A stretch of 64,000 nt of DNA. It comes from Octopus vulgaris. Its lineage: Eukaryota. The stretch spans positions 20,460,001 to 20,524,000 of the forward strand of contig OX597837.1 of NCBI GenBank assembly GCA_951406725.2. The letters are read 5' to 3'. The notes beneath the pieces are model-generated. The model ran no database searches and had not been told where the DNA came from. It saw only the letters and a program-made list of their open reading frames with translations. Made by a program: the position numbers and the translations under genes. This document shows, piece after piece, positions 7,261 to 63,449 of this stretch (within the stretch, counting starts at the first letter, position 1; every line of letters begins with the position of its first letter).

Positions 7261-7512
7261 AAATTATAATTTAGGGTATCTAAGAGATACCTCCATGCTG
7301 GAAATAGCAGTCAAAAATTTGACTCTAAAACCACATTAATGTGGTTTTAGAGGCAAGTTTTTGACTGCTATTTCCAGCGTGGGGGTATCTCTTAGATACC
7401 CTAAATTACAATTTTAAATAATTATTACCTTTGAAAGGATTTTACTCCCATGCTGGCCACCTGATAAGATCGGTATTTTAAATATCGATCTTATCCTTAT
7501 TAACATAAATTC
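7261..7512 (+). mobile_element. TA-embedded fold-back element: 154-bp palindrome plus truncated hammerhead-like motif
   Basis: Arms 7261-7337 and 7338-7414 with no spacer and about 5 mismatches. CACCTGATAA-GATCGGTATTT-T-AAATATCGATC at 7457-7490. (TA)n on both sides. Confidence 0.75.
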
Positions 7513-8072
7513 ATATATATACATATATACATATATATATATATATATATATATATATATATATATATGTATGTATGTATGTATATATATACACATAGAC
7601 AAGATGTCTACATGTTGTTGTTATATATATGTGTGTGTGTGTATTCATTCCATTTAGTTAAAAAAAGACGAAAAGAAAAGAGGCATTTCAAAGTATTTAA
7701 CACTTCCGTAAAAGGCAGCCTAAGACATGTGATAATTTGTCTATGCACGATGGTGACAATAACTAATTGTTTTGTGTATGCATATTTCTGAATGCATGTG
7801 TATGTGTACTGATATGAGCGTGTATGTATTTATATGTATTTCAGTTTTTCGTAAAGATGCTGGCATATGATTGGTCATTTTTTTTTTTTTTTAAACATGT
7901 CTACTCAGAACAGTGTCCACTACTATGAGATGAAACACTCCTGACCTCAAGTGCTGAACCAGAAATAAACTTTGTCAGTGATATCCCCTACACATTATAT
8001 ATATATATATATATAATATGTATATGCATGTATACTATTTATTTAAGTTTATATATATATATATATATATAT

Positions 8073-8498
8073 AGGCGCAGGAGTGGCTGTGTGGTAAGTA
8101 GCTTGTTTACCAACCACATGGTTCCGGGTTCAGTCCCACTGCGTGGCACCTTGGGCAAGTGTCTTCTACTATAGCCTCGGGCCGACTAAAGCCTTGTGAG
8201 TGGATTTGGTAGACGGAAACTGAAAGAAACCCCTTCGTATATATGTATATATATATATATATATATATATATGCGTGTGTGTGTTAGTGTGTCTGTGTTT
8301 GTCCCCCTAGTATTGCTTGACAACCGATGCTGGTGTGTTTATGACCCCGTTACTTAGCGGTTCGGCAAAAGAGACCGATAGAATAAGTACTGGGCTTACA
8401 AAAGAATAAGTCCCGGGGTCGAGTTGCTCGATTAAAGGCGGTGCTCCAGTATGCCCGCAGTCAAATGACAGAAACAAGTAAAAGAGAGTAAAAGAGAG
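8073..8498 (+). mobile_element. SINE family A, near full-length and well preserved
   Basis: tRNA-like head with A box (TGGCTGTGTGG) and B box (GGTTCAGTCC), CACCTTGGGCAAGT core, internal (TA)n(TG)n, retained CpGs, tail (GTAAAAGAGA)2. Confidence 0.93.
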
Positions 8499-8779
8499 TA
8501 TATATAAGGCTGCCAAGTGAAGTTCATTTGACGAGCCCATAAAACTTTCAGTTACATGGAGTTATCAAAACTGTTATTAAATAAATAATATATGTAATTC
8601 CTACAGAATGTGTTGAGTGCCTCTTTTCTTTCGTATGTCCACTCATTCATATACGTGCATACATACATAGGCAAACAAACAGACCACCAGACAGACATGT
8701 GTGTGTGTTTATGCAAATGTGAGAACACATTTATATACTACACACTGTAACAAACACAGAAGTCTTGAAACAGACCGCC

Positions 8780-58987: not shown

Positions 58988-59305
58988 ACGGTTCTGGGTT
59001 CAGTCCCACTGCATGGCACCTTGGGCAAGTGTCTTCTACTATAGCCTCAGGCCAACCAAAGCCTTGTGAGTGGATTTGATAGACGGAAACTGAAAGAAGC
59101 CCGTCGTGTATATATATATATATATGTATGTGTGTGTATATGTTGGTGTGTCTGTGTTTATCTCCCCAACATCGCTTGACAACCAATGCAAAAGTGACCA
59201 ATAGAATAAGTACTAGGCTAACAAAGAATAAGTCCCGGAGTCGATTTGCTCGACTAAAGGTGGTGCTCCAGCATGGCCACAGTCAAATGACTGAAACAAG
59301 TAAAA
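58988..59305 (+). mobile_element. 5'-truncated SINE A inserted in a piggyBac-type MITE
   Basis: MITE halves at 58862-58985 and 59320-59412 flank the SINE text. Confidence 0.85.
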
Positions 59306-60624
59306 AAAAAAAAAAAAGACATCTTGAAGCTATGAGATAATGCATGATTGATTCGAAAGATGGTGCATAAGTAAGAATTACATTTGACAGAGTAATCTGA
59401 ATGTTGAAGGGTGTAAAGGAACCTTGGTGAGAAGAAAGTCAAAATAAAGAGAGAGATCATTAGAATGAGAGACGGACGAGTCAGAGTATGTTATGGGGGG
59501 GGGGTTATGACGTTTGTCATAGGGAAATAGGGGAACCTTAAGATTGATGGATAAGAAAGACAAACATCAGAAAGGGAGTCGTAAGGGTCATAATTAGAAA
59601 GGTCTTAAAAGAGATCAAAGGGGAGAAGAAAAAAAAAGGCAGTCATAAAAAAAGGAGAGAAAGGGAAAAGAGAGAGGCAGGGGTTCTGAAGAAAATGGTG
59701 AAGTAGAAACTAAAGAGAAGTTATGTAATGATAAGCTGGAATGTGAAAGTGTGAGAGGGTGAAGAGATAGAAATAAAGGAAGAGGGGTTCCTATTAGGAC
59801 CACCACCACCACTACTACTACCATCGCCATCACTGTAACTGAGCTAGCAATGGAACCTCTATGTGGACGTTCACCTGACTGGAAATAACAGCAAAATCTC
59901 ACTCCACAAATCACACAAAACTGTTTTAAACCTAGAAAATACTCAGTGAATAAAGTAGTGGTACTACTGCTGCTGCTGCTGCACCATACCTTTAAATCTA
60001 CAAAAGGGTCATATTTGAGATGTATTTGATTATAAGTCTGTACGAATCAGGGGTTAATTTGAAGGATCACTACCATCACCTCTACAGCTGTTGTTGTGGT
60101 CATCATCATCATCATCATCATCGTTATTCCTTCCACTACTACCACTACTATCACCAACACCACCAATCTCATTGTTTTCCTCACTACAACCACTGCCAAA
60201 ACGGTGCCATACATACGGCTAAAACTTTCACCATCATCATCATCTTCAAATGTTAGTATGTATGGGAGAAGAGGAGGAAGTTACAGCTCTACCCTGACAC
60301 ACATAAGCACACACACACACACACACACACACACACACGTACACATGTGTGCACACACAGGTACACACAAACACGCATACACACGCACACAACAGCAAAT
60401 TTCGTTTTCTTTCCCATTTCTTTGGATCCATCTCATTGTGCATTTCCACTGAAGGCTTCTTGTTGTTGCTCTTGTTGTTGTTGCTGTTTTTGTTGTTGCT
60501 GCCTTTGAAGTGTTCCCTATCAAATAACTGGGGGATTCCATTCTCAGCTTGGCAGGGGTTGATAGAGTTATGGGTAGGACAGAATGATGGTGAAGGTAAT
60601 CATAGTAGTTAGATAAAGCTGGTG

Positions 60625-62500
60625 GTGGTGATGCTAGCTATGGTGGTGGTTGTGGTAGTGATGGCGGTGGCGATGGTGAAATGGTATGGGGGGTGGTAGC
60701 AGTGGTTATAGTGATGGTGGTAGCTGTGGTAGTAGTGATGGTGGTGGTAGCAATGGTAATAGTGATGGTGGTAGCTGTGGTAGTAGTGATGGTAGTGGTG
60801 GTGGTGGCAATGGTCTTGGTAGCAGTGGTATTGATGTTGGTGGTGGTGGTGGTGGTGGTAGTGGTCATAACTGTGTTGGTAGTGTGGTAGTGATGGTGGT
60901 TGTGGTGGTGGTGATGTTAGTGACAGTGGTAGTAGTCATAGCAGTGGTAGTTGTACAGGGTGTCCTGGACAACAACCAAGCTATCCAAAACGTCTTTTAT
61001 TCAAGACAGTGAGATATGGTTTAGCTGCTATTTCTAACATGTTGAACAGTAGATATAACAGTATTGGCTACAGTAGTGGTAGTGGTAATCACATAGGTGG
61101 TGAGGAGGTAGTAGTAATGAATGTACGGGTTACAGTAGTATAGTGGTGATTATACAGTTGTTGTCAATTAACCCTTGGTCAACTTTGACAGAGCATATCT
61201 ATAAGCAAAAATGTCCCAGTCGTGACCATCCCATCTAAATTTCAATGTGCAGGGAACCCAGAATATTATCCAGCATGTTTTTTGGTTTTGTTCTGCCCTT
61301 TTTTTTTTTTTATCCAAGGCAGTGGAAGTGTGATCTGAGCATGCTTTTGCTGCTGTTTCCAGCAAGCCAAGTGACTGCATAGGGGCTTCTTATTTTGTCT
61401 CATGGAGGTGGCGGCGATGGTGATGTTGGCACAAAGCACGTGCATGTATGCATGTGTTTGTGTGCGCATGTGTGTGTGTGTGCATGCGTGCGTGCGTGTG
61501 CATGCCAGGGATGGGGTGGTGGGGTGGGGGAAGGATCTTGGAGAAACTGGTGAATGAATTGAATAAAGTAGTAAGGAAAGATTAGGGAAGGATGTGGTGG
61601 TGGTGGTGGTGCCCGTGTAGGCTATAGCCATTGTAGTGGTGAGTGTGGTGGTTATAGGGGTGACAGCTGTAGTTGTAGTGGTTCTGGTGGTGGCTGTGAT
61701 GCTTGTGGTTGTGGTGGTTGTGTTGGTGGTAGTGGTGGTTGAGTGTTGGTGAAGATGTATTTATAGAATGAGAGGAGAGAGAAAAGAAAAAATGAAGGAG
61801 AAGGAAGGTGTGTGAGAGTGGCAGGGAGAGGGGGAAAGGGAAGGTGGTGGGACATGAATGAATAAATGAATGATTGTAATCTGGGTGGGAGGATGGGGAG
61901 GGGTTGCGTAGTAGAGAGAGAGAGAGAGAGAGAGAGATGAAGAATGAAAGAGGGAATGAACAAAATAGACAATGAGAAGGAAGGGGGGCAGGGGTGCCAT
62001 TAAGAGAGAACTTGGGACTAGTAAGATGGAGATGGATGAAGGGGGAAGGAGAAAGTGGGAGAGGGAGAGAGAAAGAGAGAGAGAGAGAGAGCAATGGAAC
62101 AAATGAAAGGGAAAGGGAGTGGGAGGGAAGAAAGGGGGAACAATGATATGAAGGGAGAGCAAAAAAGTGTGTGTGTGGGTATGTGTGTGTGTAGATGTCA
62201 GGATGAGAGGGTGGAAAGAGATTGACAAGAGAGAGAGAGAGAGAGAGAGCAAGAGAAAGAAGGAGAGAAGGGGAGGAGAGAAGATTTAATTGAGAGAGAG
62301 AGAGAGAGAGAGATGAAAGAAGAATGAGAAAGGGGAAAAAAGGGAACACCAGAGTGATGTGTGTGGGTGTTGTTGTTATGTTGTGATGGGGAGGAGGAGG
62401 AGGAGGAAGAGGCAGGGCAAGAGAAAGAGCGGGAGGAGGTAGAGAGAAGGAGAGGGGGAGAAGGAGGGGAGAGATGTGATGCTGAATGGATGAGAGATAC
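60625..62500. repeat. Low-complexity (GGT)n and purine-rich (GA)n tracts
   Basis: (GGT/GTA/GAT)n at 60625-60960 and 61590-61750; G/A-rich plus strand at 61760-62480. Confidence 0.9.
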
Positions 62501-63449
62501 ACAACAAACTAGATAACTATGAATGGAATGTAGCCTTGTTTATTTGTCTTGCTGCAGAATTGTTCCATGACAACAACCACTACACTTTGACACCACCGTC
62601 ACAACCACCACCACCACTGCCACTACTACTACTATTACTACTACTACTACTTGGATCACTATCAATAAACACAATAGCCACCACCATCACCACAACCACT
62701 GCCATCACCACCACCACTTAGTTATATAAGCCACTGAGAGTTACTATGTAATAGCCTGACATGGTAGAAATAACAGGCAAATTGCCCTCCCTCTCAAATC
62801 ACACCCCAACTTTTACTGTCTCTGAAATGTGAAAAAAAAAAGGCAGGACACATTGCATAATATAGGCCAAGACAGAGTGTTCAAATAAAAGGCAGGGGCT
62901 CTCAATCGTTGCTGACCTGGGGCCTAAATGATAATTCTTTCTGCTCTATGAAGGTAGGTAGAAGGCCTGAAATTTTGAGGGAGGGGCTGGTTGATTTCAT
63001 CGACCCCAGTACTTGTTTTCACATCTCCTATCCTCTAACGATCCACCCTACTGAACTAGCACATTTTATTGACCCCGGATACAATGAAAGTAAAGTGGCT
63101 CCTGGTGGGGTTTGGATTAAGGGCTGAAACAAACATCACAAGGTATTTTTATCTGATACTCTAATGAATCTGCTAACACAACACAAACAACACTAGTCCA
63201 AAGAAAAATAATTTTTCATATATGTTATGGGTTTATACCAGACCTGCTTGGGCCCTCAAGTCTTCCCTCAATACACCACACTAAACCACAAAACAGCACA
63301 CTCTACATCAGTGGTTCTCAACAGGGGTCCATATGACCATTAGAGGTCTGTATAAGATTTTGTAGTTAAAATTTATCTGCAATAAATTGGTTGCTTTTGG
63401 TCCACAAGTGTACTGCACCCACTCTCTGTCTTTTTTGCCATTACTATAA

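Follow-up and report, generated by a model that had tools for sequence, protein, structure and literature searches.

Penelope-like elements (PLEs) insert as inverted, 5′-truncated copies with a tail on one end and (TA)n targets (PMC8557442), and they carry minimal type I hammerheads (PMC4209133). Internal starts of reverse transcription at two sites define the tail, AT-rich DNA is nicked, and the bound RNA region of one PLE has been mapped only to 172 nt (PMC11167929); published tails are 30–40 bp long. Non-coding units with type I hammerheads are known as non-LTR retrozymes (LTR, long terminal repeat), for which PLEs were named only as candidate mobilisers (PMC7229834) and which have been argued to be non-autonomous PLE derivatives (bioRxiv 10.64898/2026.07.22.740005); units of 350–390 bp are reported in mussel (PMC7229834; bioRxiv 10.64898/2026.07.22.740005). 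Non-autonomous Chlamys elements (MRC1) resemble their partners at the 3′ end (PMC8557442). How PLE enzymes pick their RNA and what mobilises animal retrozymes are open questions. Here, we analysed a 64,000-nt stretch of Octopus vulgaris DNA (contig OX597837.1, positions 20,460,001 to 20,524,000; hereafter the window), where (TA)n and interspersed short repeats abound and in which an earlier note had described a GAAA-tetraloop hairpin shared by otherwise unrelated repeat families and lying antisense to a hammerhead. We find that what is conserved is a sequence box of 19 bases and not a GAAA hairpin. Read on the hammerhead strand, which is the strand opposite to the GAAA strand, the box is TTTRRCTSYTMYTTCYAGC, and it is common to six short repeat families (A, B, C, D, E, and F).

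A sequence box shared by six repeat families

We counted four box patterns in the 2.8-Gb genome, using the reversed pattern as control each time. The generalised box has 16,020 exact matches and its reversed control none; the three other patterns have 1,109, 284, and 1,265 exact matches, again with 0 in each reversed control. In the window, a scan permitting up to two mismatches, with a generalised pattern itself derived from these families, gave 14 matches, whereas 30 shuffles averaged 0.07 and never exceeded 1. The motif is thus above chance in both window and genome. We built six family profiles from genomic loci and then searched the window with them, which placed families A, B, C, and E at the positions listed below and family D in ten copies; family F, which is akin to E, has no copy of its own in the window. 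Among 45 comparisons of flanks outside the box between families, only the downstream flanks of E and F were alike (z 12.1); the other 44 gave p ≥0.012, the next best lying at 0.012 to 0.024, uncorrected. The description of the families as otherwise unrelated therefore holds at the sequence level for all but this E–F match, which supports a conserved cis-element common to families with no detectable likeness between their flanks. Additional box-bearing families with downstream hairpins of their own (L063:2700-3300, L203:1900-1950, and upstream of L159) indicate that the set exceeds six.

Copies of families A, B, C, and E in the window are as follows.
7260..7512, both strands: family A fold-back, 5′-truncated before the hammerhead and flanked by (TA)n, with (AT)n from 7513
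7260-7338, minus: short inverted arm of family A, ending 37 nt past the box against (TA)n
7339-7512, plus: long arm of family A, ending 134 nt past the box against (TA)n
7297..7315, minus (hammerhead-strand reading): family A box, described earlier at 7296
7360..7378, plus: box of the second family A arm
7384..7400, plus: 7-bp hairpin of family A, 5 nt past the box; mirror copy at 7275-7291, minus
22523..22815, both strands: family B fold-back, its long arm on minus running to ~22523 and then (TA)n
To ~22815, plus: short arm of family B, its box with a 2-nt deletion
22728..22746, minus: family B box, with the hairpin next on minus at 22706-22722
31490..31850: family C fold-back, longer arm on minus to ~31490, shorter arm on plus to ~31850
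31590..31608, minus: family C box, the AGAAGG variant of the earlier note
31659..31679, plus: 3′ half of the family C type I hammerhead pattern (end of stem II, GAAA, stem III, GUC site, stem I)
31747..31765, plus: box of the second family C arm
43535..43639, plus: family E, lone 5′-truncated copy without a fold-back, box at 43551-43569

The sites of the earlier note at 7296, 22726, 28179 (a perfect 6-bp stem), 31590, and 43551 on minus were found again, each inside or next to a profile match of one of the six families. Its fold-backs at 7242-7433, 22699-22807, and 31533-31836 and their differing neighbour hairpins are real, and each of the three pairs one short with one long arm. A fold-back had also been claimed at 43551, where there is no inverted self-match among the matches listed and the copy is a single family E profile match. 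The larger loop proposed at 25742-25768 has no family profile match and folds like shuffles (z −0.62), and 33626 gave no profile match at E 0.01, though it resembles a decayed head of family D. Copies at 7360(+), 31747(+), and 61345 were absent from the original list.

We examined the proposed hairpin by counting base pairs in copies not picked by the exact motif (60 A, 35 B, 35 C, 100 D, 5 E, and 7 F, those of A, B, and C mostly found with DNA queries including the box). No two-sided, compensatory change occurs at any of the six stem pairs across the six families. Six Watson–Crick pairs are the majority state in D only; the majority forms of B, C, E, and F carry a broken stem, with a mid-stem C-C mismatch in E and F. 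The loop is GAAA in five of the six families (54/60 A, 28/35 B, 64/100 D, 5/5 E, and 5/7 F) and GAAG in 30 of 35 family C copies. The D form of the stem (−7.3 kcal/mol, z −5.38) was the sole tested form to fold better than shuffles; for the A, B, C, and E copies of the window, neither strand outdid its shuffles (z −1.17 to +0.50). The earlier note had argued for selection on the GAAA strand from G-U pairs that work only there. Such pairs do exist (the inner pair in 56/60 A and 27/35 B and the outer pair of E/F), but others work only on the opposite strand (50/60 A, 28/34 B, 24/35 and 33/35 C, and the fourth pair of E/F). With E and F counted together, five family-positions have G-U-tolerant changes favouring the opposite strand, and three have changes favouring the GAAA strand. 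At 22726, an example from the note itself, the C-A on the GAAA strand is a G-U on the other strand, as in those 28 of 34 B copies.

Rfam gave 0 matches in the window at gathering score, and seven loci yielded 51 weak matches, nearly all to microsatellite-driven miRNA models and none to a hammerhead. A second ribozyme, which had been one suggestion, is unsupported. A GAAA hairpin selected on the GAAA strand is likewise unsupported, because no pair changes two-sidedly, because the stems of B, C, E, and F are broken, and because the markers of polarity described below point to the other strand; the lack of covariation largely refutes it. The feature first reported is therefore real, its proposed structure was wrong, and its strand was probably wrong.

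Unit architecture and comparison with PLEs and retrozymes

Upstream of the box we searched for hammerheads with our own descriptor (type I core, stems I–III, G10.1-C11.1, UH site), which was relaxed from a stricter first version that missed B and C and whose background was measured. Across the 153 copies of A, B, C, and E/F, it matched 31 on the non-GAAA strand and 1 on the GAAA strand; the background rate was 8 matches in 1,500 stretches. Among the C and E/F loci, picked without a hammerhead in the query, the counts were 7/66 versus 1/66 on the GAAA strand. The predicted cut site lies 80–120 nt before the box on the same strand, and most of the remaining copies are truncated before the hammerhead. 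The claim that hammerhead remnants lie opposite the GAAA strand was thus borne out; the window holds only the 3′ half of the family C pattern at 31659-31679, the whole of which is present at loci L186, L188, and L244. Since most copies are 5′-truncated, the box is kept in nearly all of them and the hammerhead is often lost.

The units of A, B, C, E, and F are non-coding, with no linked open reading frame (ORF). Partial tandems, with periods of 490 (A), 467 (B), 470 (C), and 357 (E) nt, show circularly permuted monomers, and two-box partial tandems are present at L072, L171, L188, L166, and L247; among the tandem loci examined, none was demonstrated to be a direct array with two complete hammerheads. 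A hairpin whose sequence differs in each family follows the box by 5–6 nt; it is present in 66/78 A, 16/17 B, and 22/31 C copies (shuffled rates 0.09, 0.05, and 0.21), and the majority forms of E and F also fold it. The box stands ~35–75 bases ahead of the first of two fixed 3′ ends, at which copies stop as follows: 30+50 of 84 in A, 16+14 of 38 in B, 19+13 of 37 in C, and 6+10 of 19 in E. Past the box these stops fall at ~+30–59 and +100–159 in A, +30–59 and +170–199 in B, ~+50–79 and +140–179 in C, and ~+40–69 and +80–109 in E, positions that are alignment ends running a few bases into (TA)n, with the long A ends favoured by the query. (TA)n follows 85 of 178 3′ ends (A 44/84, B 19/38, C 14/37, E 8/19), and 5′ starts are scattered from ~−30 to −480. 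Inverted pairs in these five families face 5′-to-5′ on the hammerhead strand in 59 cases, some possibly doubled via overlapping loci, and 3′-to-3′ in 0. Hammerhead, fixed 3′ ends, and head-to-head inversions point to the non-GAAA strand as the sense strand.

By analogy with the systems introduced above, families A, B, C, E, and F appear to work like non-autonomous PLE derivatives, that is, non-LTR retrozymes. We base the PLE-like assignment on the inverted 5′-truncated copies, the tail at one end, the (TA)n targets, the type I hammerheads, and the two 3′ stops. Traits of non-autonomous PLEs (fixed 3′ ends, 5′ truncation, an inverted 5′-truncated copy, a one-arm tail, and (TA)n) are found, as are those of non-LTR retrozymes (the type I hammerhead pattern, by our own descriptor, and, in A, B, C, and E, a short non-coding monomer). 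The five families are accordingly named as retrozyme-like candidates, with putative self-cleavage and circular RNA. The earlier note could match the element to no named family; as far as Rfam goes this stands, whereas the class can be named.

Comparison with each described system gives likenesses and differences. Like animal non-LTR retrozymes, the units are non-coding, carry a type I hammerhead, and occur singly or in tandem; unlike them, they measure 357–490 nt and are arranged in partial tandems and fold-backs instead of long arrays. Neither a 3′ box shared across families nor an octopus example is reported in the portions of the retrozyme descriptions available to us. The units share with Neptune, Nematis, and Hydra-type PLEs the hammerhead, partial tandems, an inverted truncated copy, a one-arm tail, (TA)n, and two 3′ stops, but they have no ORF and longer tails, and the box is lacking in the three autonomous families that we examined. 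They resemble MRC1 as non-coding PLE parasites with pseudo-LTRs, the 3′ likeness to a partner being a feature of MRC1; Chlamys elements differ in being green-algal, mostly without a hammerhead, and of known partner.

In viral and metagenome collections we found 4 and 41 box matches, respectively, 0 of 45 with an upstream hammerhead pattern, and we read these as chance matches. A literature search with a 12-base word of the box listed predominantly CRISPR papers, a coincidence in what we take to be the Cas9 guide-RNA scaffold loop. Our searches of the literature listed no paper describing the box. Repbase, Dfam, or the supplements and repeat libraries of PMC13282606 and PMC8557442 may contain these families already, under different names, and the shared 3′ box across them is apparently undescribed. 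We regard the box as a well-mapped lead inside a known class, non-autonomous PLE or retrozyme-like units.

Possible roles of the box

On balance, the box is likely to be part of the signal read by the reverse transcriptase (RT)/GIY-YIG endonuclease of a mobilising PLE, which would copy these units in trans. An RT/endonuclease recognition signal was among the options offered originally and is the one we favour, because a parasite without an ORF keeps what its helper enzyme needs and because the box stands just before the first stop. If the anole Poseidon element is a guide, hammerhead-strand RNA would be bound near the box and hairpin, AT-rich DNA would be nicked, and reverse transcription would start internally at one of two sites; two such start sites would leave an optional tail on one arm of each fold-back. 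A broader proposal, which we put forward only tentatively and as the less probable of the two, is that box and hairpin are the mobilisation signal of one PLE enzyme cross-mobilising at least five unrelated retrozyme families and the short interspersed nuclear element (SINE)-like family D via box capture. If true, it would give PLEs their first recognition signal that is defined by sequence and common to several non-autonomous families, and many thousands of short repeats in this genome would be classed as PLE-dependent. Independent parasite families keeping box, hairpin, and hammerhead would point to a minimal signal and offer a ready target for mutagenesis.

Several observations weigh against a recognition role. 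Rfam scored none of the hammerheads, so the hammerhead call rests on our own descriptor, and its counts by family (21/68 A, 3/19 B, 4/31 C, 3/35 E/F) are inflated for A and B, whose loci were partly picked by queries holding the hammerhead or a long tail. The downstream hairpin is weak in single E (4/15) and F (5/19) copies, and the tails, ~50–150 nt between stops, are longer than the published 30–40 bp of PLEs. The box is missing from the 3′ flanks proper to three PLE ORF families (30 loci and 4 regions for one, 30 loci for another, and 13 regions for the third), and 17 further box loci gave no PLE ORF match. Family D keeps the box and yet has no hammerhead on either strand (0/36); its inversions are mixed (12 versus 10) and tandems occur, its flanks are (CAN)n and not (TA)n, and its downstream hairpin is absent (10/53, shuffled rate 0.17). 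Finally, in the RNA reads described below, no pile-up of read ends marks the predicted hammerhead cut (position 1671 of the family A copy; 606 reads).

With regard to a partner, the youngest of the three box-less PLE families is an autonomous head-to-tail array (L121, G000:C1:57208000-57217999) with a period of ~2.58 kb, 717-aa ORFs, a weak GIY-YIG match in Pfam (E 0.018), and a hammerhead pattern with a CCGAAGA core between the ORFs; the other two are older. Inverted copies lie beyond this array at 57.219-57.222 Mb. A loose resemblance to the box in one PLE family scored no better than shuffles, and ORF matches near boxes proved to be separate insertions. A Poseidon-like family (L005, L033), examined by co-location in sampled loci only, found no support as partner. 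The window itself contains, at 41840-41995, a fragment matching the start of the L033 Poseidon-like RT frame with 81% identity over 52 aa. An octopus genome repeat annotation gives 31 recently active PLE families (PMC13282606), and the search for a partner is therefore far from complete.

To weigh the alternatives we draw on RNA reads of a related species aligned to one copy of family A only (L068): 606 raw reads (209, 249, and 148) from three runs of one study, ~6% of each run, of unknown strandedness. Reads lie on both strands of this copy and depth continues through the box; the loop is read as AAAA in 28/32, 35/61, and 28/44 reads. Of the sharp RNA ends that the earlier note proposed to look for near the motif, none was replicated, a pile of 6 reads at 1788 occurring in one of the three runs. 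These reads may be passive transcription of dead copies.

An unlikely alternative is that the box is a spliceosomal 3′ splice site retained from a PLE intron lying near the 5′ end. PLE introns are documented (PMC2377424, PMC8557442), and the box profiles contain the features of such a site, a pyrimidine tract and YAG: the AG never varies on the hammerhead strand, C or T alone precedes it, and changes between families keep pyrimidines, while E and F have an ATG 2 nt past the AG. No ORF follows, however, as 29 of 30 frames from that ATG are <50 codons, and nineteen conserved bases are more than an acceptor requires. Among the alignments listed, no splice joint at the box AG (position 1783) and no GT..AG joint in the family A copy was seen in the 606 reads, which speak against splicing and give ribozyme processing no support.

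We consider it similarly improbable that the box is a DNA element, a core promoter or host-factor site, that in a truncated upstream copy drives the full unit downstream in the manner of a pseudo-LTR. This would fit the conservation of sequence and not structure, it would also fit family D with its unclear polarity, and PLEs need a partial tandem for transcription, with promoters in the pseudo-LTR (PMC2377424). Against it, reads on both strands show no replicated start near the box, the 1788 pile being confined to its single run, and no known promoter motif was recognised by eye, no eukaryotic promoter scan having been run.

A quite remote alternative is that the families stem from a single ancient PLE pseudo-LTR, of which the box is the slowest-decaying remnant, with no present role. 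They do share the layout hammerhead–box–hairpin–end, and E and F are clearly related; the flanks to either side, however, are no more alike than chance and the box is near-invariant, which neutral decay in source elements would not yield. Least probable of all is a GAAA-tetraloop hairpin that works in the antisense RNA or in single-stranded DNA, be it as a second ribozyme, as a terminator, or as a signal of an antisense template. Antisense templating has been suggested for PLEs (PMC3846280), and the prevalent GAAA loop, the strong D fold, and the inner G-U of A agree with it, but it is opposed by the pairing evidence given above, by the GAAG of family C, by the frequent AAAA of the related-species reads, and by the lack of an Rfam family.

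Family D and further observations in the window

Family D is the commonest carrier of the box. It is old and ~230 nt long, with the box lying ~35 nt inside one end and an (AAC)n run at the opposite end. The sites that the earlier note placed at about 24997, 40790, 46655, 47258, 48228, 59878, 61022, and 62760 are family D repeats by profile. The ten window copies are listed by the strand that carries GAAA.
24994..25186, plus: copy with box partly lost, profile E 2.5e-23
28134..28356, plus: copy with box at 28181-28199 and stem z −5.38, profile E 1.3e-36
40776..40937, plus: copy with a stem-breaking box variant, profile E 1e-05
46637..46697, minus: head fragment, profile E 0.0014
47079..47306, minus: copy, profile E 2.3e-24
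48227..48282, minus: head fragment, profile E 8.7e-08
59838..60052, plus: copy, profile E 2.9e-17
60962..61048, minus: fragment, profile E 1.1e-05
61150..61398, minus: copy absent from the original list, profile E 4.7e-30
62719..62938, plus: copy, profile E 9.6e-14

The box columns of D have a mean agreement of 0.82, compared with 0.61 for the next 30. The small hairpin past the box shows no covariation, and 80 incidental matches revealed no bias toward 5′ or 3′ truncation. Runs of (CAN)n lie to either side of D (11.3% of 115 and 10.2% of 118, versus 2.4% of 3,000), and a target-site check found a shared word of at least 8 in 11 of 65 cases versus 7.9% of controls, some cases being repeats of a single locus. 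With its ~230 nt, two defined ends, (AAC)n run, and very many old copies, D resembles a SINE. It differs from SINEs in its tandem and inverted pairs and in the (CAN)n on both flanks, in that no tRNA-like head was recognised, and in that no long interspersed nuclear element (LINE) with the same tail was found among the loci examined; 25 tail-only copies included no LINE 3′ end as donor of the tail. No small-RNA head of D was found in the window by Rfam at gathering score, a search not aimed at promoters or tRNAs. In D, the box lies as far from the end as in A and B, suggesting that the three share the origin of this end. Family D, which has neither the hammerhead nor the polarity of the other families, probably acquired or inherited the box.

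Some D-like loci are organised in other ways. A minisatellite at L141:764-2009 (G000:C5:147.45 Mb) consists of ~14 units of ~87–95 nt that are the box-bearing end of D, and L312 (G000:C1:18330800-18332800) is a near-identical array with a period of 213 nt and at least 8 units carrying a D-like box, with no hammerhead seen by eye. In a duplicated region (L316, L318, L320, L321, and L322; G000:C1, ~5.8-9.1 Mb), a D-like box ending in TAG is followed ~100 nt on by GTGAGT, a donor-like site; judged by these letters, the box may act as acceptor for a small exon. Two interleaved 5-bp inverted repeats in the (AAC)n end of D (for example, window 28290-28345 and L205-L234) are a possible H-type pseudoknot.

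Elsewhere in the window, a perfect 29-nt direct repeat (43462-43490 and 43753-43781) flanks the family E copy together with a (TA)n run and is possibly an unusually long target duplication. A tandem repeat at 28760-29142, with units of 87 and 103 nt that are 95–96% alike, is unrelated to the box. Four more fold-backs without the box lie at 42877-43069, 7136-7245, 23198-23328, and 52484-52582, the first of which resembles another (TA)n-flanked family, from L032 and L061.

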